Of a stretch of DNA of 64,000 nt, positions 3,606 through 58,185 are shown piece by piece. The stretch comes from an uncultured virus (IMG/VR IMGVR_UViG_2049941000_000011) (lineage: Duplodnaviria; Heunggongvirae; Uroviricota; Caudoviricetes): the IMG/VR virus record IMGVR_UViG_2049941000_000011; one strand, written 5' to 3'. The position numbers were made by a program, and so were the translations under genes. Each line of letters starts with the position of its first letter. Positions within the stretch are counted from its first letter, which is position 1. A model generated the notes under the pieces. The model made no database searches. It was not told where the DNA came from and saw only the letters and a program-made list of their open reading frames with translations.

Positions 3606-6600
3606 TTAATTTTTCTTACGAGAATATCTTACACTAAGACTTCCATCATCTCTTATAGATTCAATTAGTCCTATAGATCTTTTAAATCCACTACTATAAT
3701 CAGTTTTTACTGAGAACATATTTTCTTTTCTGTATCCGTAAACAATTAATTTTGTTCCCCTTTTGAAGAAAGATTCATCAATAACAACTTTTTTCTTGGT
3801 TGCAGGATCTAACTTACTAATTTTTTGGTTAAATTGAGTATATAAACCTGCATACATTTTAACATCTACGACACCATATTTTGTTAATAAACTAATAGTG
3901 TGACGAGTATTATCATAGTCTGTAACAGTACCTGCTAATGTGCAAAGTTTATATTTATTTTTACCGCCATCCTCTTCTGGATATTCAGGTAATTCATTGA
4001 AATTACGAGTATTATATGTAATATCATTCATATCGGCCAATTCGTGTCTACCGTGATAGAAGTTCATTGTTTCCATCTCCCAAGAAGATAAATCGCCTAT
4101 ACCGTAATATTTTTCTTTAAATTTATTTATAAAGTCTTGTTGAAGTAAATCTTGATATGCTTTTCTGCCTTCTAAAGTATTAATATNNNNNNNNNNNNNN
4201 NNNNNNNNNNNNNNNNNNNNNNNNNNNNNNNNNNNNNNNNNNNNNCAAATGCTGATTTTTTCATAAAGATTTTGTCACCAATATATCCATACTCTGATTT
4301 TTCAATTTTTAATTTTTGTTCAATGAAAGTACGGAAGAATTTTATACAAGCTTCATCATTGAAAACATAGCGTCTATTTGCTGCATCGAAACGATTTTTA
4401 TCAATATATCTTTTATATTTAAATAATCTAATCTCTGTATCAAATCCTTGTAAAGATAATCCGAGTTCTAAAGCTTTTTTTAGTTGAACAGAAGTTAATT
4501 TATCTTTTAATGGACATTCTTCTTCTGCTAATTTTTGGACATATCTTAACATAATGACATCACGCTTTTTATTTTCTAATTTATCGAAACATCCTGCTTT
4601 AATAAGTCCGACCATTTGTGCTTGTGTTGGTTGAATTCTTTCTTCAAAGTCAGTAATAGAAGTGTAAGGTCTACCAGCAATAATGCGTTCTGCTAATTCT
4701 GTGTTGACAACATTAATAGCAGACAAACTATATAGAATACTGTTGTTTTCAATATCAGGAGAGAAATCAATTTGAGAAGTATTAATATCTGGTAATTCAA
4801 TATTAACTCCTGATAATTGAGCATCAGAGATAGCCTTTGCAATTTTGCCATACTTAGGAGCAGATCTTTTTGCTGTTGTAGCTGTCTCTTCTTCATTTGA
4901 AGCTTCTTCTACTGTTTCAGCATCTTCTTCTTCGTCTTCTAAATCAAAATCTGTATCAGAATTGCCTGCATTAATGCATAAACAAGCGCATTGCCAATAA
5001 AGAGGATTCCAGCGTGTAGCTAGATTCATTTCTTGAACAGCAATAACAGAATAAGGAAGAGTGTGATTGAGAGAGAAAGCATAGCCCAATTGAGGTTCAA
5101 CACAATATTTCCAGACATAATTTAAGAATACATCTCGTGTTCCCAAGTCATGACCCTTTTTAAAATATTTTTCCTTATTTTCTTGAATTTTAGCAGCAAT
5201 TTTTTTAGAAATAGCTTTTCTAAATCCATTAGCTTCTCCCAATGTAAAGTTAGAGATTTTAGGATCCATAACTAATAACATTAATTTTTCTTGTGAACCA
5301 GAAATACCAAAGCTTTCTTTTAAATATTTTTCAAGAACTTGGATTTCTTCACNNNNNNNNNNTTCAAGCCGATTTCTATCATTTCTAAATACCACAAGTT
5401 GATATCATTTCTAAATTTAACGTATCTATCGATAGGTTGTTCATCGCCTTCAACTTGTAATCTCATAATAGAGTTAATTTCAGCTAATTGCATAACATTT
5501 TCTGGTTTTGCTTTTTNNNNNNNNNNATGCAGACAGAACCAACTTGTGTCTCAAACTGGAACAAATTAGCAATTTCTCCAGAAGCTGCTTTTTCCCACAT
5601 TTTAGGATTTGTATAATCTAATACGTCTGGGTGTAAATATTTATCATATGTTTTTCTTAAAGATCCTTGCCATTCAATTTGTTTATTTTTAATTAATAAG
5701 TCTAAACATTTTGCCATTTTAGATTGAGCATCAGTTCTTAAGACATCCATTTTTAATGCGCCCTGATCATCGGAATCATGCATATTAAATGCAGTCATTT
5801 TTGTTCCATTCGGAGCTCTCATTAAACTATTGTGTTCTAAATATCCATTGTTGAAGATATATAATGCAGATGCGTGAATACTAGAGTTAGTAGGCATGCC
5901 TTCGATCTTTCTAACAGCTTCTAATAACCCAGGATATGGATCAAACTTGTCTAAAAATCCTGGAACAGGATCTAAATCCTTCTCTTCATCTCCATTAACA
6001 CATTGTTCTAAATTATATGTAATACCTCTATGAGCAGGAACTAAAGCTGCTAGGGCTTGCATTTCATCATTATTATATCCTAAACCTCTACCACAAGTTA
6101 AGATGGCAGATTTTAAAGATTCTGTTTTAAATGTTGCACAGTTTAAGACGTTATCATCTCCATAAGCATCACGGAAGATCTGGATGATATCTGGTGTTTT
6201 TTCTGGTTGATAATCTGAGTCAATATCTGGCATTTCAACTCTCTCTTTATTAAGGAATCTCCAATAAGGTAATCCATAAACGAGAGGGTCACATTGTGTA
6301 ATACCAATAAGATAATTAATATAGAAACCACAAGCAGATCCACGGCCACATCCGACTAAGCTCACTTGCCAAGCAAGATTAATCATATCAACAGCTAAAT
6401 TAAGATAAGCACTGACATCTTGTTGTAATCTATTTGAAATAAACGCAACAACGTCTAATTCAGTTCTAACAGGAACAATAATTTGNNNNNNNNNNACAAC
6501 GTCTAATTCATCATTAATTCTTTGAAGCTTGACATCATCAATAGTAACATTCTTACTAATAAGACCATTTTCAATTTGATACATCAAGAATTGGTCTTGT

Positions 6601-7604
6601 TCAGATGAGCTGTAAGCATATTGCTTAATCATTGGATATTTATCATAAGCATCTTTTAATAAATGCTTTAATTCAAACTTTGGAAGATGTAAAGCTGGAA
6701 CGATAGTAGAGTGTCTAAAATCATAATCAACAATTTGATTACTAATTTTAACTGTATTATCGAGACCTTCTTTAATTTCTTCTTCGGATAAGCCTTGCTT
6801 TAATAGAATGTCTTTCATTTCATCTTCAGACATAATATAAGTGAAACGATAGAATTTATCTGTCTCGCGATCGCTAGATTGTTTACTATTTAAGAAAGCA
6901 CTGTGGATTTTAAAGTCTTCTTTATTTAAATAGTGACTGTCTGTTGTAATAATATAAGGAATATTATAATGTTTTGCAAATTTAATTAAAGTTTTGTTTA
7001 CAGTGATTTGTTCTTCTGAATCTGAAGGTTGTAATTCAAATGCAAAATTATCTCTACCAAAAGTAGATATACACCATTTAGTAAAGTTATTTGCTCCTGT
7101 AACATCATGAGCTAAGATTTTAACAGGTAATTCTCCTCCTAAACAAGCGGTGGAGGCAAAGATGTGTCCTTGATTTGGTTTAATAATTTCTTCAATATCT
7201 TTATAAGTTGTTGGAACTCTCATGATACCTCTTTCAACGTATCCTCTACTCCAAGCTCTACTAGATAATGTTTTGAGTTGTTGCCATCCCTCTTCATCCT
7301 TGGCTAATAAAATAAAGTGATAATATTGTGTTTTCTTTTCAGGATTGGAAACGTGAACATTAACATCATCAATCAAATAAATTTCATTTCCAAAAATAAT
7401 TTTGAAGTCTGGATGTTTTTCTTTGATTTTATCTCTAATTTTTAATAAACTTACTGCCACTGATAAACTCTCATGGTCGGTAAATGCAATACCAGAGAAG
7501 CCAAGGTCAATGGCCTTTTTTACCATCTCTTCAGGTTTATTTATAGAATCTAACATTCTTAAATTAGACCCTGCGGTGTGATTATGTAAAGAAGCAAAAC
7601 CCAT
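3606..7604 (-). CDS. dnaE: DNA polymerase III alpha subunit (family C); one gene fragmented by N gaps
   Basis: PHP domain (LHNHT, TDHES, TDSHY), GRGSACG, PDIDSD, SIHASA, KMDVL, YAFSLNH, C-terminal OB fold; inter-gap stretches 5363-5515 and 4077-4171 also translate as DnaE. Confidence 0.93.
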
Positions 7605-7607
7605 AAA

Positions 7608-8351
7608 TTATATCCCCTTTCTAATATTTTTTTTATAGTGATGCAAATGCGTCCAGATAAGGCATCTGTTAATTAAATTAACAGTATTATATGTTACACC
7701 GAACACATGAGCAATTTGCGTCTGAGTTAAACGAGTTTGAAGCAAGGCATCAATAACACCTTTTGCCGTCTCGTCTGTTAATTTAGCACTTGGATTGTTC
7801 TCGCCAAGTCTGTGGGGCCCTTCTATAATTCTACCATCTGCACGAATAGGATAATTTTCATTTATATCAACATAGCTTTTCCCATAATTAATACGAATAA
7901 GAATCGCTCGGTTGTTCTTTGTGGGGGTCATTCCAATCATGGAAAGAATATCATTATAAGATAAATCAATATTTTTTAATAGAGAACGTACGATTTTTGC
8001 TTGATCATTAGATAGATGCGCCCCGTAAGCCAACTCTCCTTTTTTATGATCGTTACACTCCCCTCCATAGGTCATATTGTAACCTTCACCATCCAGATAA
8101 TAAGTGTGATATTTTTTAATATAATCTCGTTCTTTCTGCTGAGCTTCTTCTTTTTTTAGATTTCTCTCTAAAACTTCAGTTTGAAAATTTTCTACTCCAT
8201 ATTTGCGTATTGCTTTATGAAAGAGAAAGGCGTCATTATTAGAATAAGCAGAATTAATATGTTCTTTCCATCTATGCTCAAAAGTATGTTGGGTAATACC
8301 AACATACTGTTTTTGATTTATCAAGTTCGTAATTTTATAGACGATAAACAT
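7608..8351 (-). CDS. Free-standing GIY-YIG homing endonuclease with repeated C-terminal DNA-binding units
   Basis: IVYKITNLINQKQYVGIT...RWKEH...E...GYNMTYGG; two GE..(S)AxL units followed by HTH-like segments. Confidence 0.88.
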   Translation of the reverse strand: MFIVYKITNLINQKQYVGITQHTFEHRWKEHINSAYSNNDAFLFHKAIRKYGVENFQTEVLERNLKKEEAQQKERDYIKKYHTYYLDGEGYNMTYGGECNDHKKGELAYGAHLSNDQAKIVRSLLKNIDLSYNDILSMIGMTPTKNNRAILIRINYGKSYVDINENYPIRADGRIIEGPHRLGENNPSAKLTDETAKGVIDALLQTRLTQTQIAHVFGVTYNTVNLINRCLIWTHLHHYKKNIRKGI

Positions 8352-10261: not shown

Positions 10262-11077
10262 CTATTTTTTCTTTTTAAATAAATTTGCAAACCAGTTAAT
10301 AACTTTTGCCAACCATCTTAAGAAAGTTGTATTGTGGAATGGTTGAGATACATGAGATTCTCCACCAACAACTTCATCAGTTACACCCCAAGCTTCTGAT
10401 AGCTTAGTGTCAAATGGTAGAACTGCTCTTCCACCTTTACCCCAAGAAGATCCCCAAGAATTTTGAATGAGCCATCCATCTTTGTTCCATCCGTAGATAA
10501 TCATACAATGACCACCTACTTTTTTCTTTTTAGGATCAAGATGAAGGACACCTTTATCGTCAACATTTGCTCCATCGCGCCAATCAACCGCAAATACGAC
10601 AGGTCCATAATTGAACAACGCGTATTTAATATCTTGAACGGATGAGACTCTGAAATATGTAGAGATTCTATTGTAATGAGCCCAAGTTTTTAAATCCAAG
10701 AAACGTTCTTCAAACAAATCAATAGCTTTTGGAACTTCTACATTTTCTGGGAAATCTGTTTTTTCAGCATCGCCATATTTACAAGCATTTGCTAATGCAT
10801 TTCTAACATACATGCCTTCGCCCTTATGTGCAGAGTTTCTTCTATTACCATAGATGAATCCTGTACTCATTAGCTTGTCTGTTTTTTCTTGACCTTCATT
10901 ATGAAATTCTATAACTTCTGCAATAGAATGCGCGACACAAGATCCAACCGCACCCTGATTTTTAATTCTAGGAGGGTGTAATTGGAATTTTTCTGGCATT
11001 TCTACGTCAGGAGCTTTTAATTTATAATCACGAACGTCTGTTTGGTGCGGAAGTGCACCGAATAATTTATTTTCCAT
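10262..11077 (-). CDS. Papain-like cysteine peptidase (C1 family)
   Basis: NQGAVGSCVAH (oxyanion Gln, catalytic Cys), GGHCMIIYGW (His), QNSWGSSWG (Asn); AAGGAG SD before MENKL. Confidence 0.9.
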   Translation of the reverse strand: MENKLFGALPHQTDVRDYKLKAPDVEMPEKFQLHPPRIKNQGAVGSCVAHSIAEVIEFHNEGQEKTDKLMSTGFIYGNRRNSAHKGEGMYVRNALANACKYGDAEKTDFPENVEVPKAIDLFEERFLDLKTWAHYNRISTYFRVSSVQDIKYALFNYGPVVFAVDWRDGANVDDKGVLHLDPKKKKVGGHCMIIYGWNKDGWLIQNSWGSSWGKGGRAVLPFDTKLSEAWGVTDEVVGGESHVSQPFHNTTFLRWLAKVINWFANLFKKKK

Positions 11078-11087
11078 GTATTTCTCC

Positions 11088-11279
11088 TTATATATATGCA
11101 TCTGGTTTTAAATCTACATCGATATAATAAACTTTTTCATCAATTAATTTATTAATATAAAACTTATTAATGCAAGATTGCATCCACAAGTTGAAATCCT
11201 CTCCGCTCGTAAATGCAATCACTGAAAATTTATTAGAATTATGAAGTCTCAGAATAACATGAATTAATTCTGTCGTCAT
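11088..11279 (-). CDS. Hypothetical protein
   Basis: Short ORF tightly packed in operon. Confidence 0.55.
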   Translation of the reverse strand: MTTELIHVILRLHNSNKFSVIAFTSGEDFNLWMQSCINKFYINKLIDEKVYYIDVDLKPDAYI

Positions 11280-18672: not shown

Positions 18673-19317
18673 ATAGAATTTATCATCTAATTTAGGAATA
18701 GGTAGAAATCTACTCTTTAATCCGCTTAGATGAATAACTCCTAATGCTATATCTGTTGTCTTAATATATCCAGATTGATACGCAGCTATAGCATATAAGT
18801 TTAATTGTGCTGTAACAAGCTGTCTGTGAATTGTTGATGTAGTTTTAAAGTCAGCTAATGTAAGCACACCATCAACTTCACATAATAAGTCAAACCTTCC
18901 AGCTGCCACTGGCTTTCCGTCAGCGTCATGAAGCAAGACGACTTTTTCTGTTAAAGTTGGTTTAATTTTATAAATTGGTTCTACTAAATTGAAATAATTT
19001 TGAACCTCTTGATACTCTGATACTAGAGGAATAGAATCATCCATCTCTCTTAATTCAATTAAATCTTGAAGATCTTTGTGCACTTTGGTTCCATACTCTG
19101 CTGCTTTCTGCAAGATTTCTGGTCTAACATTGGCATAAGCGTTACCATAGAAATCGTTTAGGAGAGAAGTTACACTTGGTAACTCCGCTCCATCTACGAT
19201 ATAAGTATGTGTTTCGTCAATATATTGAACCACTTCTCCCGTAGGCAGAACATAAGTTTCAATTTTTGGACTTGATTCCATACTATTCTGTCTTGTCTTC
19301 GGCAACCCTGTTGACAC
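18655..19317 (-). CDS. PD-(D/E)XK exonuclease
   Basis: PSVT, GTKVH, AGRFD, LADFKT, QLNLY; exact start uncertain. Confidence 0.85.
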   Translation of the reverse strand: MSTGLPKTRQNSMESSPKIETYVLPTGEVVQYIDETHTYIVDGAELPSVTSLLNDFYGNAYANVRPEILQKAAEYGTKVHKDLQDLIELREMDDSIPLVSEYQEVQNYFNLVEPIYKIKPTLTEKVVLLHDADGKPVAAGRFDLLCEVDGVLTLADFKTTSTIHRQLVTAQLNLYAIAAYQSGYIKTTDIALGVIHLSGLKSRFLPIPKLDDKFYLQFIK

Positions 19318-19672
19318 GAACAGATTCTTTTACTGTAGAAATCTTAACATATTTCTTATAAGTGTCAGGATCTTCAGCCTTAAGCTTTGTCGTGTCAATC
19401 ATTGTTTTTGTGGAACCAGGAATATAGGAATAAACAAACTTATCTGTGGAAAGTTTTCCTTCTCCTGTCTTCATATATTGTTCTTTTAAAGTGCTCTTAA
19501 TGCTTTCGTTAATATCGGTTTTTAAAGTATTAAGACGATCTAATACGGACAACAACATGTCGTATTTTTGATTAAAATCATCAGAATTAATAATTTCTGT
19601 TGTAAGATGAGCAAGATCAATGGATTTTAATTCGTTAATTGCTAATAATTCATTATCTTTTCCCATACTCAC
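19283..19672 (-). CDS. Hypothetical coiled-coil recombination-module protein
   Basis: IDTTKLKAEDPDTYKKY pattern, typical of small genes next to phage exonucleases. Confidence 0.55.
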   Translation of the reverse strand: MSMGKDNELLAINELKSIDLAHLTTEIINSDDFNQKYDMLLSVLDRLNTLKTDINESIKSTLKEQYMKTGEGKLSTDKFVYSYIPGSTKTMIDTTKLKAEDPDTYKKYVKISTVKESVRVNRVAEDKTE

Positions 19673-19674
19673 TC

Positions 19675-20661
19675 CTAGAAGTCAACTTCTTCGTCAAGAA
19701 CTGATGTGGCGGCAGATGTATTTACAGGTGCTGCTGCAGGAGCTGCAGCTTTCTTAGCTGATGATTTTTTACCATTTTCATCCATCTTATTGTCTCTTAA
19801 TACCATAGCTTTCTTAACGAAATCTGTTGTAATAGAGCCTTCTTCGCCATTGTGAATTGGATTTGTAGAACCAGCCATAATTCTACGTTCTCTAATAAAG
19901 CGTGTTTCATATTGAGGGGTATCAACTTTTCCAAAATATTGAGGCTTTTCTTCTTTAACAGCTTCCTTTTTAACTGCAACACTAGTAAGGTCGCCTATTA
20001 AAGTAACAGTATCAGAAACTGCATAATGTTCTGAAATATAATCTGCAATACCATCATCAGGATAAGCAATGAAGCCAACTTTATTAACAGAATTATCATA
20101 AGTAGGAATAAGTCCGTCAACCCAAAGTTTTCCTGTTGTTTCTCCGTCCTCTTCTACTGGTGTTAAAGCATCAATATAGACGTCAACTTTGAATTTAGCT
20201 TCTGGTGTGAATGGAGAAGCATCTGTAGCTGTAATTTGTTTAAATCCTGCACGGAATCCTTTTAAGGTGACCATAGATTTTTCAATTTCACCTTGACGAG
20301 ATGCAAATTCTTCAAAACGTGCAATAGCATAGACTTTTGCAGCCATAGTGATAGCAGCTTTGTAATCTGCTGATTCGTTAGTTTTTAAATAGCTAGCGAT
20401 GCTGATTGTGTTTTCTGGTAAGAGTTCTTCAAGCTTTTTGTAATCTTTGTTTTCGCTTTTGTCTTTGTTAAATTCATTCATAAAGAATTGAACTTTGTAG
20501 GAAGAAACTTCATTGACCGCAATAGTAATAGAACCACGAATAGCAGTCTTACCGTCTTGGCTAACGATGCGTTCTAGGTTGTTCTCCTTAAGATAGCCGA
20601 CGATCTTAACGGAGTTTTGTTTTGTAACATTTGTTGTAGTTGTTTGTTTTGGCTTTGCCAT
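19675..20661 (-). CDS. Probable single-stranded DNA-binding protein
   Basis: NSVKIVGYL start, Ala/Pro linker, acidic tail ending DEEVDF; first gene after a strong promoter. Confidence 0.65.
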   Translation of the reverse strand: MAKPKQTTTTNVTKQNSVKIVGYLKENNLERIVSQDGKTAIRGSITIAVNEVSSYKVQFFMNEFNKDKSENKDYKKLEELLPENTISIASYLKTNESADYKAAITMAAKVYAIARFEEFASRQGEIEKSMVTLKGFRAGFKQITATDASPFTPEAKFKVDVYIDALTPVEEDGETTGKLWVDGLIPTYDNSVNKVGFIAYPDDGIADYISEHYAVSDTVTLIGDLTSVAVKKEAVKEEKPQYFGKVDTPQYETRFIRERRIMAGSTNPIHNGEEGSITTDFVKKAMVLRDNKMDENGKKSSAKKAAAPAAAPVNTSAATSVLDEEVDF

Positions 20662-20740
20662 AGTTTTTTCTTAATCTCCTTTACAAAAAAATGTTTAATA
20701 ATTGCGTTGATGGTAGACATAGTTGTACCATAACACCTAT

Positions 20741-20769
20741 ATTATATATGGATATAAAAATAGTGTCAA
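20741..20769 (-). promoter_or_regulatory. Consensus sigmaA promoter for the replication/recombination operon
   Basis: TTGACA-17-TATAAT. Confidence 0.85.
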
Positions 20770-20776
20770 TAGAATA

Positions 20777-20941
20777 TTACTCATCAATGCGTTTATTTCT
20801 TTTAAATGATCCTTTGCCCTTTTTAGGCTTAAAAACATGAGCTCGTGTAGATCTCTGCACATTGAAGTGATCCACGTTTCTCATGTTATATTCGCCTTCT
20901 GTTGTTTGGCCATTTAAGGAAATTCTAATTTTACGTTTCAT
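20777..20941 (-). CDS. arfA: ArfA-like alternative ribosome-rescue factor (54 aa, not in ORF track)
   Basis: MKRKIRISLNGQTTEGEYNMRNVDHFNVQRSTRAHVFKPKKGKGSFKRNKRIDE contains the ArfA hallmark KKGKGS(Y/F)xR. Confidence 0.72.
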   Translation of the reverse strand: MKRKIRISLNGQTTEGEYNMRNVDHFNVQRSTRAHVFKPKKGKGSFKRNKRIDE

Positions 20942-20948
20942 GGCCATT

Positions 20949-20977
20949 ATTATATATGTATTTTTTTATATTGTCAA
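20949..20977 (-). promoter_or_regulatory. Consensus sigmaA promoter directly before the arfA-like gene
   Basis: TTGACA-17-TATAAT; the ATG at 20941 follows the -10 box after 7 nt. Confidence 0.85.
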
Positions 20978-21177
20978 TAAATATCATCATTAACACATTT
21001 CGCTATCGCATCTCCGACCAATATTGTCCCAGAGAAGAGGAATATGCCTGTCATAACTTTTACCCATAGCGGGGCATAGAGGAAAATCAAAGAAATACCA
21101 ATTACAACCACAGCAATGAGCATGGTTATCAATATTGCAAATAACCATGATTTTAAATTAGATTTAAATTCTTCCAT
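20974..21177 (-). CDS. Small two-TM membrane protein
   Basis: AGGAG SD before MEEFK; two hydrophobic segments. Confidence 0.65.
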   Translation of the reverse strand: MEEFKSNLKSWLFAILITMLIAVVVIGISLIFLYAPLWVKVMTGIFLFSGTILVGDAIAKCVNDDIY

Positions 21178-21185
21178 ATATACTC

Positions 21186-21485
21186 CTAAATGAAATAGAT
21201 TGGTAATAAACAATAATGTAACACTTGGTCCGTAACATAACTAATCTTTTTGAATCTGGCCTTTGAAACGTCAATAATTATATGACTGATAAAGATAATA
21301 GCTAAATGCCAAGTAATTCCGAATGCAAAGATGAACGGCAAACAATACAGGGCACAATGCACTAATAGATGGTAATAATTACTTCCCTTAGTTTGTGCTA
21401 TGTAATCGCACTGTAAGACATAATCACCCACTAAGTGACAAAGAATTAATGTAATCAATGTTTTAATGATATCCATAATTAACAA
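21186..21485 (-). CDS. DUF3307-like membrane protein
   Basis: HLVGDYVLQ...K, HCALY, SHIIID, DQVLH motifs. Confidence 0.75.
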   Translation of the reverse strand: MLIMDIIKTLITLILCHLVGDYVLQCDYIAQTKGSNYYHLLVHCALYCLPFIFAFGITWHLAIIFISHIIIDVSKARFKKISYVTDQVLHYCLLPIYFI

Positions 21486-21853
21486 GTCACTCTCTTCTTA
21501 CTGTGGGGACAATAATCACAAGGGCTATCTCCTGCCACTGGATTACCGAACGCATCTTTTGGACCGCCGTTATTTGGGCAAGAAGCACAATGATCAGATT
21601 TGACATAGTATCCTAAACTAATGTTGGGATCCACGACAATCTCATTAAGATCGGGAGAGGTGGTGGTATCATGAAAGATCACCTTACCGCACTCTGGACA
21701 CACAACATATCGTTTAAATTGACATGGATAAGTAGTTAAACAAATAGTTCCATCTACTTTCAAATCTGATTCTGCAAATTCAAACTCGCATCCGCATTCT
21801 GGACAAGTTGTTTTTAGTCTGGGATTCTTCCCGTGCTTTAAGACTTTGATCAT
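21479..21853 (-). CDS. Cys-rich zinc-ribbon protein
   Basis: CPECGC, CPECG, CASCP, CDYCP; GGAGG SD before MIKVL. Confidence 0.7.
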   Translation of the reverse strand: MIKVLKHGKNPRLKTTCPECGCEFEFAESDLKVDGTICLTTYPCQFKRYVVCPECGKVIFHDTTTSPDLNEIVVDPNISLGYYVKSDHCASCPNNGGPKDAFGNPVAGDSPCDYCPHSKKRVTC

Positions 21854-21866
21854 ATATATTATCCTC

Positions 21867-22133
21867 CTAAATATGAACATGACATAACCAATAAATAAAT
21901 TGGCATATCCACCAAATTGGCATTATTATCAAACATATCGCGGATGTCAAGATACATCCGAATAAATTCATTTTATTATTTTCCCTACGATATAAATACC
22001 AAGGCAGCATGCTGTATTTTGCAAAACAATTCTTATCGTCAGCATTAACTAGATAACCTATACTATAAGTTAGATTACATACAAAGAAGAGTGCTGCATA
22101 AATGCAAAGAATAATTATTAAAATCGGGTTCAT
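21867..22133 (-). CDS. Small membrane protein (paralog of 22144..22371)
   Basis: MLPW...MNLFGCI...PIW...FIYWLCH. Confidence 0.7.
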   Translation of the reverse strand: MNPILIIILCIYAALFFVCNLTYSIGYLVNADDKNCFAKYSMLPWYLYRRENNKMNLFGCILTSAICLIIMPIWWICQFIYWLCHVHI

Positions 22134-22143
22134 TTTTTACCTC

Positions 22144-22371
22144 CTAAATATGAAACAACCAATAGAAGAATCTTGTAATCCATATTGGTGCAAATAATAC
22201 AAACGCTAGTACAGAAACAACAATACATCCTGCTAGATTCATGTCAGTATCATCATGTAAATCCCAAGGTAACATAGCATAGAAACGTATGTCAAGAGAT
22301 ACGGATATAATAATCATAACAAATGAAAGTGCACAATATCCAATTATAATTGCTGGTAAAATATCAATCAT
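22144..22371 (-). CDS. Small membrane protein (paralog of 21867..22133)
   Basis: MLPW...MNLAGCI...PIW...FFYWLFH; GGAGG SD before MIDIL. Confidence 0.7.
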   Translation of the reverse strand: MIDILPAIIIGYCALSFVMIIISVSLDIRFYAMLPWDLHDDTDMNLAGCIVVSVLAFVLFAPIWITRFFYWLFHI

Positions 22372-22375
22372 TATG

Positions 22376-22627
22376 CTACCTCCATCCCCAATCGAGTCTC
22401 CACCAGCCAAATATGGTTTCCTTATAAATAAAGCTAATACCTTTTAAATCATTCTTTTCACATTCAGTCAGAGGAAGGTATACGCCATCATATTTGAGAT
22501 GAGTATCATTCTTAAAGAAATCGGCTATTCTGTCCACAGGATCGTCTTCATCTTTCATAATAAATCCTATACATAGATATGCATCGGGTGTCACCCCAGA
22601 ACATTTATAATATCTCTTTTTCTTCAT
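22376..22627 (-). CDS. Hypothetical protein
   Basis: ATGA-coupled to the upstream ORF. Confidence 0.6.
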   Translation of the reverse strand: MKKKRYYKCSGVTPDAYLCIGFIMKDEDDPVDRIADFFKNDTHLKYDGVYLPLTECEKNDLKGISFIYKETIFGWWRLDWGWR

Positions 22628-23007
22628 AAATAGTAATCGTCCTCGTCTTCAAAATCTACTCTTGATGATCTTACCATGTCATTGATAATTCTTCCAAAAA
22701 TTGTATCAACACGATCTTCATCTATATCATCTTCTTCAGCTGTATCGCCGAGCCAAATTTCATATGCAGCTGCTTTCAAATGTTTATCATAATCATTATA
22801 GAAGATATTTCTCCTAGCAGCTTCATCAAATATGTCATCTAGAGCTTTTTGATTATTCTTTAAAAAGCGAACGTTACCTTTCCTATTGGCTACAGCGAAG
22901 GCAATATTCTTAAGATATTCATCATCAATCTCAGAAAAATCATAATATCTATTGCCACGGATATCTATCCAAACAGGTTGTTTACTTAGTTCCATATTTT
23001 TTTTCAT
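22624..23007 (-). CDS. Hypothetical protein with acidic C-terminus
   Basis: TAATG-coupled to the upstream lipoprotein gene. Confidence 0.65.
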   Translation of the reverse strand: MKKNMELSKQPVWIDIRGNRYYDFSEIDDEYLKNIAFAVANRKGNVRFLKNNQKALDDIFDEAARRNIFYNDYDKHLKAAAYEIWLGDTAEEDDIDEDRVDTIFGRIINDMVRSSRVDFEDEDDYYL

Positions 23008-50160: not shown

Positions 50161-50189
50161 ATTATAGACGACAACACTTATAATGTCAA
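50161..50189 (-). promoter_or_regulatory. Consensus sigmaA promoter of the tRNA/ncRNA island
   Basis: TTGACA-17-TATAAT. Confidence 0.88.
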
Positions 50190-53153: not shown

Positions 53154-53609
53154 CTAATTTTTAATAAAACGATAAGTAATATCTTTAATATTACCACATT
53201 GTATATGGAATAATCTTTGATTGGTGTTGGGGTTATTTAGTGGTCCTTTTTCTGGAATATATCCCCCAATTTTATAATAATCAAGCACAGGAACCAAATC
53301 TCTGTCTAATTCGTCATCACCACTATACATACCAACTTTTAAGTGAGTAGTATTATGTATATAATTAGCCATATACTTAATATAATTATGATCACTGTCG
53401 CCCCCCATAAAGCAAACACAAGTAATACCGAAATGGTCTTGAATTAATTTATCTAATTCTGCTTCTGATAATACTGTACCGATATCTTCACGAAGCCACG
53501 GAGAGTGACAATTTTTACACATATGAGGACAACTGGTAATATCTATAGCTAAAGTAATTTCATCAGGTATTTCACTGAATACTACTGCGCTATCATAATA
53601 TTTAAGCAT
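53154..53609 (-). CDS. nrdG: Anaerobic RNR activating radical-SAM enzyme
   Basis: CPHMCKNCHS, FMGGD, DYYKIGGY, TNQR. Confidence 0.92.
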   Translation of the reverse strand: MLKYYDSAVVFSEIPDEITLAIDITSCPHMCKNCHSPWLREDIGTVLSEAELDKLIQDHFGITCVCFMGGDSDHNYIKYMANYIHNTTHLKVGMYSGDDELDRDLVPVLDYYKIGGYIPEKGPLNNPNTNQRLFHIQCGNIKDITYRFIKN

Positions 53610-55522
53610 CTTTAATATCATCCTTTTTTGCGTAATATCTTGTAACAGCTTCAACTTGTCTAGCTTCACTAAAATTTCCAATGCGCTTGAGATATCCAAT
53701 GATTCTAGTTAAATAGTCAACATTTTTAGAACCGCAGTGTTCACAATGGTCTAAATGATGTTTGCTAATATGTCCGCATTCGTTACAGATTGTATTAGGG
53801 ATATTAAATGTAAAATATGAACATCCAGCATGTATTGCAATATCCATTAACATACGATATTGTTTTTGAGATAAGTGTTCATCTAAATTACAATGATATG
53901 CGCTACCACCATCTAAATTACCAATAAAATCATGTCCTTGTAAGAACATTTTTGTAATTGGATCATACTTAGGATCTTCGACAGGATAGAAATAGGAATT
54001 ATATAAATTTCTCTTTGGATTAACATAATATCCATCTCTCTTATCCCATTTATATAACTTCGCACCCGCATTCTCTGCTGGAACTTGCTCTGTATTAAAT
54101 CTGAGATGTTCTGTTCTGTGTGCAGTATTTAATTCTTTAATAGTATTCAAAATATCCTTCGCATACATCTTATATGATTCGTTACTAGGATTAATTTCAA
54201 TATTTTTGTAGCAATCACTATTAACATGAGCTAAGAACTCTGCGCCTTCGATGAAACCATTAAATCCGATAGTAAGATATTGTTTGTCTAAATCAATATA
54301 TCCAGCATCATAAACTGTTAATAATCCAGAATTCTTTAAATCCCAAAGATAATCATTCCAAGCTTCTAAATATTTATGTACTCTATTAACAATATCAGCG
54401 ATATAGTCACTAAGTGTACCTTTATATTTGAATAATAATCTATGTGATTTTCTATACCAATCTTGGACTATTCTATTAATATTTAAAGTAATAACTTTCT
54501 TAGAGCCAGTTTCAACACCGCCAGCTCCCAATGTATAACTAAAAACGTTCTCTTCGATAGCATTTTTCAAACGGCAACAACTTGAAAGTGCATCCGCAGA
54601 ATCACTATTATATAAGAAGAACGAATGGCCTTCTGCCCACATTTCTGCTGTAAAATCTGCCATATCTGAATCAACATATTGTTTTGTGTCTTTGTTCCAC
54701 AATAAATTCATGGTTTCAACAGGGAAAGTAATAACATCATGTGTTCTTTCTTGATTAAACCATTTCATAAATATTTTTTGCAATTTCTTAGTGGATTCCC
54801 AACAAGGAATGTCTCCGTCAGGGAAAATAAAATCCTTAAAAATAGATTCAAAANNNNNNNNNNNNNNNNNNNNNNNNNNNNNNNNNTATCCTTTGTCGAA
54901 ATATGCAATGTTTGTAAATGGAGATTGATATCCCCTTGCACCAGCAGGTTGATTTATACAATAGACAAATTCTTGAAATAAATCTTCAATAATATGTCTC
55001 ATTGTGAANNNNNNNNNNATTATATACACATTCTTCTAAATGCTCCATATAATCATCACCGTAATCTACTCTTAAGAAGTGGTCTAAATAAGGCAAAAAT
55101 TCAGGAACAGCGACTGCTCCTGCAAATTGACCAGCAACTAAGAANNNNNNNNNNGCGTGTTTAGGAGCACCGCTGGTTCCCCCCAATGGCTTTAACCCTT
55201 CTAATAAAAAAGGATATAAAGAAATAGCTACACAATAAGGCATAATTGAAGTCTCATCATGAGAATAAATAAGATGTCGTGCTAAATCTTTATCGAATTT
55301 TCTACATATTTTAATACCATATTTTTTTCGAAGATAAGTTTTTGTAATAACTCTATTTACTTCAATAAAATCGGGCTTAGAAAGCTCTGAAGACATTGTA
55401 GCAATATTTTTACTTGTTACATTTGCGTTAGCATCCACAGTGCTTCCAGATGCAGCATTTTTTGCCTTTTTGTAGCGATTAATAAAACGCAATTTTCTCT
55501 TGGTTAGCTTACTTATTCTCAT
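53602..55522 (-). CDS. nrdD: Class III (anaerobic) ribonucleotide reductase, split by gaps, no ATP cone
   Basis: IYSHDE, PYCVA, SSCCRL, EQVPAE, CNEC/CEHC zinc site, glycyl-radical motif RIIGYL. Confidence 0.93.
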
Positions 55523-55745
55523 TGTTGTCTCCCCCTTGTAAGCGAACCCATTCAAATATATCTTTTCCCACATATGATTTTTCGTCGACTACAAGTACGG
55601 GAGTGTGAGAGAAACCCAATGCTTTAATTTGTTCAGTATCCTGATTTTCAATGTACTGAATATTATTTTTATTTAACATCATCTTAACCATTTTGCATTG
55701 AGGACATCCTGGTTGAGAATAAATTGTAACTGTATGTTGATCCAT
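55509..55745 (-). CDS. nrdH: NrdH/glutaredoxin-like redoxin
   Basis: TIYSQPGCPQC...TPVL. Confidence 0.85.
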   Translation of the reverse strand: MDQHTVTIYSQPGCPQCKMVKMMLNKNNIQYIENQDTEQIKALGFSHTPVLVVDEKSYVGKDIFEWVRLQGGDNNENK

Positions 55746-56492: not shown

Positions 56493-57179
56493 TTACTTCA
56501 TATTTTTGCGCAAATAATAACGATTCATATTTGCAATTTTAATTTTTTCTTTATGTTTTTGATAATATTCACGTTTTTGTTGTCGCAAATATTCTTTTTG
56601 TTCAGATGACATTTTAGCAAGGCGCCTTTTTTCGCTATCTCTTTTACGAAGTAATTTTTCTTCTCTGCTCAAAGGAATACGAGGCGCCCAATTTGGGTCT
56701 TGTTCCCTTTTAGCTTTATTACGAATACGGCTACGTAGTAAAATAGCTTCCCTATTTTGAAGATAATACGCTCGCTGTCTGGCATTTTTTTGTTCTCTGT
56801 GTTCATTTTCCCAACGGACATGAGAGTATTTTTCTGCCGCTTGTCTATCTTCTTCAGTTAAATACTTAATAGCCCCTTCTCCTCCATACGTCATATTATA
56901 TCCATTGCAATTAGGATCTTTTATACACGTATGATATAATAAGATAAGCTCTCTTTCTTTTTCTTTCGCGTCTTGTTCTGTTAAATTTTGAAACAAAATA
57001 TTATGCTGAATATTATTCCATCCATATTTTTGTATAGCTCGATACATCATAGGTTGAACATTCTCTTTATATCCCCACCCATAATCCCAACGTAATTGTG
57101 GCGATTGACATGTAATGCCAATATATTTTTTACCATTAGGAAATATATGCTCATAAACAATAAATTTTCTATCTGGCAT
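56493..57179 (-). CDS. GIY-YIG endonuclease with basic C-terminal repeats
   Basis: IVYEHIFPNGKKYIGIT...RW...GYNMTYGGEG; RAYYLQNRE and REYYQKHKE repeats. Confidence 0.85.
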   Translation of the reverse strand: MPDRKFIVYEHIFPNGKKYIGITCQSPQLRWDYGWGYKENVQPMMYRAIQKYGWNNIQHNILFQNLTEQDAKEKERELILLYHTCIKDPNCNGYNMTYGGEGAIKYLTEEDRQAAEKYSHVRWENEHREQKNARQRAYYLQNREAILLRSRIRNKAKREQDPNWAPRIPLSREEKLLRKRDSEKRRLAKMSSEQKEYLRQQKREYYQKHKEKIKIANMNRYYLRKNMK

Positions 57180-58185
57180 CCGAACTATCCCCTTTTTTAT
57201 TGTTATACTTAACAAAAAATTTATTTAGTTTTTCTTCTGTAGGAGTATCATCGTAAATTTTAATTAAATCTGAACTTGCCCACGAGAATATCTGAACAAT
57301 CACATCATCTGGTAATTCCATAGATTTTAATAATGTACAGAAATAATGTCTACTTGAGTGATTGTAATATTCAATATTAAACATTTTTGAAATCTTAGCA
57401 GCAAAATTATTTGCGGTTGAAGTATTAGCTGGCACATAAATACCACCTTTTTTCGTTACAAATAAATAGTCACTGGTGATTCCTAATTTTTCTCTTTGAT
57501 TCATCCATTGATCAAAGAATGGTTGAAAGAATTCTTTAATAACATATTTTTTAATCAATTTACCTTGTTTTCCTCTGCCTTTGGATCTAATTGATGGAGT
57601 ACAATACATGTATCCGTCAAAAACTTCTCTCTCAGGAACAAAGAACTCTGGCTTCATTTGAAGCATTTCTGATTTTCTACAACCAGATGCACATAATAAA
57701 GCTAAATAACAAGCAATTTGATATTCTTCGTTGTCTACGAGCCCTTGTAAAATGTTATTAATATCTTCATTACTTAATACAGTCTTTTCACGAACAGTAT
57801 TAATATGAACTGGTTCTAATCCTCTTAATTGATTATGAAAATTCGGATAAATATCTTCATATAATAATTCAATTTCAGAAGATAGACTGCTTAATACAGA
57901 TTTTAGGGATGCGATTCTATTTGAACTCATTCCTAAATCTCTACACCAACCAAAGTAGTAAACAAAGTCTCTCTTTTTAAGCTCAATAAAAAATTTATCA
58001 TCATTTTCTAATAAGTTCCAACAAAAGAAAACTTTAAGCCATTCTTCGTATTGGTGGATGGTTTGCGGAGATTTATCATTAGACTTACAGTATTTAATAA
58101 AATCTTTTACAAGTCTCTGATTTTCGGCAGAAACATTTGCATAATCTTTAGTTAAATTATCATTATAAACTGTTGATCTGCCCAT
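57169..58185 (-). CDS. Tyrosine recombinase (XerC/D/integrase family)
   Basis: SGCRKSE, SKGRG, HSSRHYF, FSW, catalytic Tyr in IKIYDD. Confidence 0.88.
   Translation of the reverse strand: MGRSTVYNDNLTKDYANVSAENQRLVKDFIKYCKSNDKSPQTIHQYEEWLKVFFCWNLLENDDKFFIELKKRDFVYYFGWCRDLGMSSNRIASLKSVLSSLSSEIELLYEDIYPNFHNQLRGLEPVHINTVREKTVLSNEDINNILQGLVDNEEYQIACYLALLCASGCRKSEMLQMKPEFFVPEREVFDGYMYCTPSIRSKGRGKQGKLIKKYVIKEFFQPFFDQWMNQREKLGITSDYLFVTKKGGIYVPANTSTANNFAAKISKMFNIEYYNHSSRHYFCTLLKSMELPDDVIVQIFSWASSDLIKIYDDTPTEEKLNKFFVKYNNKKGDSSDAR

Follow-up and report, generated by a model that had tools for sequence, protein, structure and literature searches.

The window, by which we mean the whole 64-kb stretch of DNA analyzed, has all its genes on the minus strand, with GC contents of 31–39% (33% for the phage). 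They include tape-measure and tail genes, a tyrosine integrase, a recombination directionality factor and four tRNA genes, together with a replication and recombination block that encodes a 328-aa protein, a RecE-like protein, an exonuclease, Erf, a DnaB-like helicase, a primase and a split DNA polymerase. The DNA polymerase is 41% identical to YorL, and its best matches (15 of 15) are from SPbeta-group Bacillus phages and a Geobacillus phage; the window can be described as that of a large SPbeta-like phage. A Firmicute is the likely host, in view of the YorL-like polymerase, the low GC content, promoters of sigma-A type and strong Shine-Dalgarno (SD) sequences. The sequencing runs containing the locus DNA are labelled as bovine gut or gut metagenomes. 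We found no tmRNA gene within the window.

Directly upstream of the replication and recombination block, as the first cistron, lies a gene of 54 codons. Along the minus strand from 20980 to 20740, the order is the end of a 79-aa gene, promoter P1, the 54-codon ORF, 7 nt, promoter P2, a leader and the 328-aa gene. The features, with the evidence for those predicted within the protein, are:

20949..20977, minus strand: promoter P1, TTGACA (20977–20972), 17-nt spacer, TATAAT (20954–20949), matching the consensus at 12/12 positions.
20942..20948, minus strand: the 7 nt from −10 box to start codon, AATGGCC, holding an in-frame ATG (20947–20945).
20777..20941, minus strand: 54-codon ORF with its TAA (20779–20777), the second ATG, at 20941, being the probable start.
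20885..20938, minus strand: residues 2–19, N-terminal element, a predicted beta-hairpin (strands 2–9 and 12–19; AF2 on family alignment A1).
20849..20875, minus strand: residues 23–31, predicted helix with the signature RN..HF.VQ (A1 and AF2).
20780..20848, minus strand: residues 32–54, ArfA-like module, ending in IDE (Pfam, PDB profile search, hhalign).
20807..20824, minus strand: KKGKGS, residues 40–45 (A1).
20741..20769, minus strand: promoter P2, a perfect TTGACA-17-TATAAT that begins 7 nt after the ORF stop.

The minus-strand ORF listing gives this frame as 20947..20777, 56 aa (MAMKRK...), and the 54-aa form begins at the second ATG (20941). The upstream in-frame ATG (20947–20945), which would yield the 56-aa form, cannot be in a P1 transcript because it stands 1 nt after the −10 box. 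Relatives start at the equivalent of the second ATG in the protein alignment, and the codon between the two ATGs is changed from GCC to GTC in a close relative of the locus; both observations fit 20941 as the start. The 54-codon frame on the minus strand, from 20941 to the TAA, is MKRKIRISLNGQTTEGEYNMRNVDHFNVQRSTRAHVFKPKKGKGSFKRNKRIDE. No GGAG, GAGG, AGGA or other SD-like word was found ahead of either ATG; neighboring genes have strong SDs, for example AAAGGAGA ahead of the 328-aa gene. An earlier note on this DNA, made from the sequence alone, had described a 54-aa ORF with KKGKGS, a perfect −10 box 7 nt before its ATG with no SD, a consensus promoter of its own, and a real stop with no hydrophobic tail. 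All of this was confirmed: RAHVFKPKKGKGSFKR lies within the 54-aa form, TTGACA-17-TATAAT precedes it, and the C-terminal end, ...NKRIDE, has no hydrophobic tail, the stop and the missing tail being true of the ORF and across its family.

The −35 box of P1 contains the TGA stop (20976–20974) of the upstream 79-aa gene. P2 serves the 328-aa gene (20661–19675), whose leader of about 73 nt carries a strong SD. Since no terminator separates the ORF from P2, transcription from P1 should continue into the replication module. Exact 12/12 matches to the promoter pattern number three in the 64 kb, where 0.05 would be expected, and 0 of 100 shuffles reached three; two of the three perfect promoters of the window flank the 54-codon ORF. 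The +1 is probably the A of the ATG at 20941, and the mRNA would hence be leaderless; its first 18 nt are unpaired in the predicted fold. We considered whether the ORF has, as arfA does, a 3′-terminal hairpin for RNase III, and rejected this, as the single strong predicted hairpin lies at about codons 19–36, before KKGKGS, and the ORF has its own stop. Rfam gave no match in 19500–22500 at E ≤ 1.

The ORF product belongs to a family of 45–70-residue proteins from metagenomes and viral contigs. Word-indexed search found 12 small proteins (50–86 aa, 96–58% identity). Exhaustive search of cluster representatives yielded 27 matches at E ≤ 0.001, adding 26 more relatives once P0017, a 407-aa repeat protein, was discarded as spurious. 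Alignment A1 comprises the window sequence and 34 relatives (35 sequences); left out of it were the near-duplicate P0006 and three proteins of 83–97 aa (P0008, P0023 and P0027). The extra length of these three looks like mis-called starts or extensions. The conserved elements of A1 are an N-terminal MK.KI.V..., the signature RN..HF.VQ and then R..VFKPKKGKGSFKRNK. K40 is invariant, and H25, Q29, R33, K41, G42, K43, G44, S45 and R48 are each conserved in 90% or more of the 35 sequences. KKGKGS itself is kept in 32 of 35, and the three members without it retain the basic tail.

Among 29 members with DNA, 22 pairs had unsaturated synonymous divergence, and their median dN/dS was 0.17, with values of 0.02–0.2 for close pairs. 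By these measures the 54-codon ORF is a real, conserved gene under purifying selection. A close relative of the whole locus was found on a 136-kb contig and two shorter contigs, from three runs in two studies. It differs from the window by 41 substitutions over 801 compared bases, four of them in 20777–20947 (two synonymous third-position changes, at G42 and E54, one R6K, and one in the GCC between the ATGs). No promoter hexamer is altered. From P2 through its leader into the start of the 328-aa gene, 277 nt contain two substitutions and a deletion of 1 nt; the upstream membrane-protein gene is the outlier, with 29 substitutions in 240 nt. This comparison does not single the ORF out, since the sequence downstream is at least as conserved.

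One member of the family is in an Erysipelotrichaceae assembly, adjoining an FtsK-like gene, and only 2 of 151 related genomes around that assembly carry a family member. Flanking genes differ between loci: comparison of proteins of at least 60 aa at 35 family loci with those of the window gave just two incidental matches, neither of which adjoins the family gene. A conserved gene neighborhood was rejected, Pfam search of the immediate neighbors having returned unrelated functions. With so few carriers and unshared flanking genes, the family is accessory. In the phage collection, neither megablast with 19000–23000 nor tblastn with the 328-aa neighbor gave a match; tblastn with the 56-aa protein (E ≤ 1) gave none either, a result obtained with a short lysine-rich query under a low-complexity filter and so not to be read as absence. 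NCBIfam has no family for the ORF product, and PHROGs gave one weak match, to a family of unknown function.

Start regions were compared across the family. DNA was available for 36 family loci (the window, L001–L003, L013 and L048–L078), of which 30 remained after dropping six duplicates whose upstream region and protein were identical to others. For each locus the start was taken to be the closest Met lying 33 or more residues upstream of the motif, which follows the protein alignment and was our choice. Controls were 148 other ORFs of at least 100 aa from the same DNA, taken from the first ATG on both strands and including some non-genes. A locus was called leaderless under a loose rule if a −10-like hexamer ended 4–10 nt before the ATG and there was no SD; the strict rule added a spacing of 6–7 nt and a −35 hexamer matching at 4/6 positions or more, at 16–18 nt. 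The loose class took in 15 of the 30 family loci against 6 of the 148 controls, and the strict class, a subset of it, 12 of 30 against 1 of 148. An SD only was found at 9/30 family loci and 89/148 controls, both a −10-like hexamer and an SD at 2/30 and 0/148, and neither at 4/30 and 53/148. Eleven of the 12 strict loci have a spacing of 6 nt, so that the usual +1 falls on the A of the ATG; that of the window is 7 nt. The strict counts support the leaderless start that the earlier note had thought probable. The leaderless form is not obligatory in the family, nine of the 30 loci having an ordinary SD. Several family loci have a terminator-like hairpin overlapping the −35 box, making the gene an insulated cassette.

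ArfA (PF03889) is the sole Pfam match of the ORF product (E 1e-4), scoring 22.1 bits for the 56-aa form and 22.2 for the 54-aa form. Search with this model had been proposed in the earlier note; it returned the expected family, but at a score under the 25.5-bit gathering cut-off. The match covers residues 35–53 of the 56-aa form and profile positions 24–42 of 44. At E ≤ 0.01, 31 of the 34 relatives also match (32 of 35 with the window), the three that fail being those without KKGKGS, and two of the 34 reach the cut-off (P0032, 27.1; P0036, 25.5). Matches begin at profile position 20–28, and none extends into the N-terminal half of the model. When the family profile was compared with PDB sequences (E ≤ 10), all six matches were ArfA chains of ribosome structures, at E about 2e-3.

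In the latter alignment window residues 32–54, TRAHVFKPKKGKGSFKRNKRIDE, pair with ArfA 25–47 (full-length chain numbering; 5h5u_3). R33, V36, K38, KKGKGS and R48 are identical to ArfA, and F46 is opposite a Tyr; KKGKGS with the aromatic and Arg residues is thus in register with ArfA 33–41, and ribosome contact by this part of the phage protein is a prediction. KP-KKGKGS-FKRNKR falls opposite ArfA 31–44, the part at the decoding center and in the mRNA channel, and TRAHVF opposite ArfA 25–30, the region of the RF2 beta-strand. As described for ArfA (PMC8012679), Q27–E30 add a strand to the sheet of RF2 domain II/IV, F25 makes RF2-specific hydrophobic contacts, residues 15–24 form a helix at the decoding center, and the C-terminus is in the mRNA channel. 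Opposite QRVE of that strand stand residues A34–F37 (AHVF), with the V identical and R33 opposite R26; the AF2 monomer is coil there. Thr32 stands opposite F25. Ile52 stands opposite the His of the "KH" pair described as conserved between ArfA and BrfA (PMC8012679); the review gives the pair without numbers, and its ArfA residues were assigned here from the PDB-profile alignment. The ArfA-like tail is short and ends in acidic residues, the TAA coming 9 codons after the motif.

Scanning of contigs (viral, genome and metagenome) turned up a second group, of 36–50-residue proteins encoded by AT-rich marine DNA, three of them in Pelagibacter or Pelagibacteraceae records. These marine ArfA-type proteins all match Pfam ArfA (29 of 29, best E 2e-8), and when the family was compared with them by hhalign, the last 24 columns alone aligned (probability 98.2%, E 3.9e-14). 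In the ESM Atlas the nearest clusters score 0.92, and 21% and 13% of their members carry the Pfam label ArfA. The stretch that matches ArfA is rich in K and G, and part of the ArfA score could be compositional.

By these alignments, the last ~23 residues are homologous to ArfA. The earlier note had called the gene ArfA-like, and this stands for the C-terminal half, through Pfam and the PDB ArfA chains, but not for the N-terminal 31 residues, which could not be aligned to ArfA by Pfam, PDB profile or hhalign. Residues 2–19 are family-specific, with no ArfA counterpart in the PDB-profile or hhalign alignments, and there is no alignable counterpart of ArfA 1–14 or of the A18 region; ArfA 1–14 are described as becoming ordered only upon RF2 opening, an activation blocked by A18T (PMC8012679). 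An AF2 model on A1 has strands at 2–9 and 12–19, a helix at 23–31 and then coil, at low confidence (mean pLDDT 67, pTM 0.28). The predicted helix occupies the same place as ArfA helix 15–24, directly before the aligned segment, and since it immediately precedes the aligned strand the layout would be the same as that of ArfA.

The reading we favor, with somewhat more confidence than doubt, is that the product is an ungated rescue factor of ArfA type that recruits a release factor. That it docks in the ribosomal mRNA channel, taken by itself, we consider quite probable. The basic tail K38–R51, including KKGKGS, would thread into the empty mRNA channel of a ribosome that has run to the 3′ end of a broken message and stalled there, and the strand R33–F37 and helix V23–S31 would lie at the decoding center and recruit a class-I release factor, with RF2 the most likely partner. 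This presumed partner should be available, because prfB is present in every one of 31 genomes around the Erysipelotrichaceae assembly. The release factor would hydrolyze the peptidyl-tRNA without a stop codon, and the ribosome would be freed for phage translation. Cellular arfA and brfA are described as expressed from non-stop mRNAs and silenced by trans-translation (PMC11633108, PMC8012679). The phage product would not be gated in this way, because its real stop comes just after the functional region; the "unregulated" activity that the earlier note drew from this stop and the missing tail may accordingly be read as a suggestion of the sequence. With no trans-translation gate, it would be an always-on factor, expressed from a strong promoter at the head of the replication module, and its role for the phage would be the recycling of ribosomes stranded by mRNA decay during infection. 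We infer ribosome binding, release-factor recruitment, the transcription start, the timing and the benefit to the phage.

The main rival, which we judge unlikely, keeps the tail in the empty channel and supposes that the N-terminal half recruits no release factor. Such a plug would compete with SmpB-tmRNA or other channel-sensing factors, or block vacant ribosomes, and the phage product would then inhibit trans-translation or host translation instead of rescuing ribosomes. It would account for the likeness being confined to the channel and strand half of ArfA, with the RF2-activating half replaced, and a peptide equal to the SmpB C-tail is reported to inhibit tmRNA-SmpB binding and transfer (PMC8012679), so that a channel-binding peptide can inhibit by itself. 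However, conservation in the family is among the highest in R33–F37, opposite the RF2-pairing strand, and in the preceding helix, which mere plugging would not require. Less probable again is a small basic protein that binds nucleic acid, DNA or RNA for example, with a likeness to ArfA that is convergent or compositional. The position of the gene directly upstream of replication and recombination genes would suit such a protein, as would a match to ArfA that is short, lysine-rich and below the Pfam cut-off, and the three members with a basic tail but no motif; yet the other family loci show no synteny with replication genes, the identity extends over a specific 9-residue word and a flanking R..V.K that keep register with ArfA, no other family or structure was matched, and a graded series links the family to ArfA-type proteins. 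We regard it as very improbable that the ORF is a chance frame between two strong promoters and no functional protein gene. It is very short and lacks an SD, and in the close relative P2 with its leader is at least as conserved, but 38 protein relatives occur in unrelated contexts and the dN/dS of close pairs is low.

The rescue-factor reading has a narrower form, in which the factor serves chiefly to undo stalling that abortive-infection nucleases of the host bring about by cutting mRNA or tRNA; this is a sub-case and not an exclusive rival, and we find it doubtful. The earlier note had proposed that the gene counters such mRNA- and tRNA-cleaving defenses, a claim for which we found no support, there being no RNA-repair or known anti-defense gene recognized beside the ORF or elsewhere in the 64-kb window. 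The phage does carry four tRNA genes, and the family gene is accessory and mobile, like many counter-defense genes. ArfA-type factors are described as needing an empty mRNA channel and as acting on ribosomes with mRNA cut at the A site (PMC8012679, PMC11633108), which would suit mRNA-cutting systems; for these an anti-defense role is possible. Cleavage of tRNA leaves mRNA in the channel, so it would not alone create a substrate, and turnover of host mRNA by the phage itself would explain the need for rescue equally well.

Leaderless mRNAs load onto 70S ribosomes with an empty mRNA channel. An ArfA-like tail can occupy this same state, and a self-limiting circuit can be imagined in which leaderless mRNA and channel-binding product replace the tmRNA gate: once stalled ribosomes had been cleared, free peptide would fill vacant 70S channels and turn off its own leaderless translation. 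Together with the N-terminal module peculiar to the family, this would mark out a phage-borne class of proteins that recruit release factors and are tuned to Firmicute RF2 or RF1. We offer this as a long shot.

ArfA-type rescue is viewed as a cellular back-up checked by trans-translation, and a survey of more than 15,000 genomes reports ArfA as restricted to Gammaproteobacteria, some Betaproteobacteria and ten species of the B. subtilis group, the latter being the only Firmicute hosts for which that survey reports ArfA/BrfA (PMC11633108). New here are a distinct subfamily with an N-terminal module of its own, its setting in a rumen phage of Firmicute type (the host being probable), and a quantified enrichment of the leaderless layout. 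If the rescue-factor reading is true, phages supply their own rescue capacity, or manipulate rescue, during infection, and the known range of the ArfA channel-sensing module widens. The family would also provide natural chimeras, with the same tail and a different head, for asking what recruits or activates RF2 rather than RF1. Repeated leaderless mRNAs for the family gene are a testable regulatory oddity, and a 54-residue peptide is easily synthesized for in vitro release assays.

Among known systems the nearest is ArfA (YhdL) of E. coli and other gamma- and beta-proteobacteria (PF03889; structures 5MDV, 5U4I, 5MGP, 5H5U and 7OJ0). The phage protein resembles its active form in size (the structure chains have 45–61 residues, with one full-length chain of 72) and in the order of elements, namely helix (predicted in the phage protein), short strand, KKGKGS and basic tail. 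Unlike ArfA, it has a predicted beta-hairpin in place of the flexible residues 1–14, a shorter tail with an acidic end, and Thr opposite F25. Its ORF has a real stop and no hydrophobic, unstable C-terminal extension, whereas the ArfA mRNA is made non-stop, through an RNase III hairpin or a terminator within the ORF; moreover the phage gene is probably leaderless and is carried by a phage whose host is probably a Firmicute.

BrfA of the B. subtilis group (6SZS, according to PMC8012679) is described as working like ArfA (PMC8012679, PMC11633108). It is the known small factor that recruits RF2 and senses the channel in a Firmicute, the phylum of the probable phage host. This likeness is one of description, no BrfA chain having appeared among the PDB matches of the family profile at E ≤ 10, and brfA, in contrast to the phage ORF with its real stop, is reported to be expressed from a non-stop mRNA under the trans-translation gate (PMC11633108). 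ArfT of Francisella tularensis is likewise very small, with a charged ribosome-binding segment, and recruits release factors to non-stop ribosomes (PMC6514570, PMC8012679). As these sources describe it, ArfT differs in working with either RF1 or RF2 and in having a charged helix, often repeated; it is set beside the phage protein by description only. The C-terminal tails of SmpB and ArfB are also basic and sense the empty mRNA channel (PMC8012679), but they belong to larger proteins, adopt a helical form on the ribosome and have no sequence likeness to the phage protein.

ArfA genes have been noted in other phages. In the literature searched we found no publication on the function of a phage ArfA, the name appearing in print for phages only as annotation, and none on leaderless phage ArfA genes. 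Gp30 of pelagiphage HTVC027P has an ArfA domain and is reported as highly expressed both early and late in infection (PMC12753301), and g10 of Citromicrobium phage RXM is annotated as ArfA (PMC8953757). These two belong to alphaproteobacterial phages, and we liken them to the present gene by description, as phage-borne genes with an annotated ArfA domain.

The ArfA-like ORF of the window is preceded by a perfect TTGACA-17-TATAAT promoter (P1), and this element seems, judging from sequence matches, to be present again in other genomes from the same habitats. A P1-covering stretch of 33–39 nt inside 20943-20989 (minus strand) was the sole match to the window in seven short pieces of other contigs. 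Each piece carries 6–7 differences from the window, and contigs continue at these places with sequence unlike it.

The corresponding region was examined at other loci encoding relatives of the ArfA-like product. At eight of these (L051, L053, L055, L061, L064, L066, L068 and L073) a terminator-like hairpin with a T-run lies about 45 nt before the start, where it overlaps the leaderless promoter's −35 box. This gives the ArfA-like gene in these loci the look of a self-contained, insulated cassette. In the window itself, the RNA of 20700-20941 (minus strand), running from the ORF to P2, the consensus promoter just after its stop codon, has a predicted fold of −51.2 kcal/mol (z −3.5), which only 1 of 200 shuffled sequences equaled. 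The prediction places one long hairpin within codons ~19–36 and a second structure over P2.

A pattern search of the window gave one more perfect TTGACA-17-TATAAT, its third, which is listed below with other features. Downstream of it are small ORFs, tRNA-Pro (49129-49053) and tRNA-Gln (48649-48575), and given this placement it may drive the tRNA cluster. Two genes are split, each with a homing endonuclease gene nearby, and the polymerase gene may be interrupted by mobile elements.

Further features of the window (all minus strand)
3606-4076, 4172-5395 and 5484-7604, SPbeta YorL-like DNA polymerase in three ORFs (sequence similarity)
7608-8351, GIY-YIG homing endonuclease gene, immediately upstream of the polymerase ORFs
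10262-11101, papain-family cysteine peptidase (PF00112, E 6e-13)
21186-21485, membrane protein of the DUF3307 type, encoded two genes ahead of the ArfA-like ORF
50161-50189, third consensus promoter
53602-55029 and 54986-55573, two overlapping ORFs between which the large subunit of the anaerobic ribonucleotide reductase is split
56493-57215, second homing endonuclease gene, near the split reductase

A second group of ArfA-type genes, of 36–50 codons and with real stop codons, was found in AT-rich marine contigs (L014-L016 and L079-L107), three of which have records titled Pelagibacter or Pelagibacteraceae. All 29 of 29 marine proteins matched Pfam ArfA at E≤0.01. A published survey records no ArfA beyond the gamma- and beta-proteobacteria and the B. 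subtilis group (PMC11633108).

Some relatives of the window's protein depart from the usual form. Three (P0015, P0018 and P0028) keep the N-terminal module and the basic tail without KKGKGS and may constitute a motif-less branch of the family; P0015 scores 26.0 bits against Pfam DUF7230, under the cut-off of 27. Another, P0023 (83 aa), has ~30 extra, partly hydrophobic residues past the usual acidic end. This extension could reflect a mis-called stop, or else the protein may be made by read-through or be gated in a way that recalls full-length ArfA.
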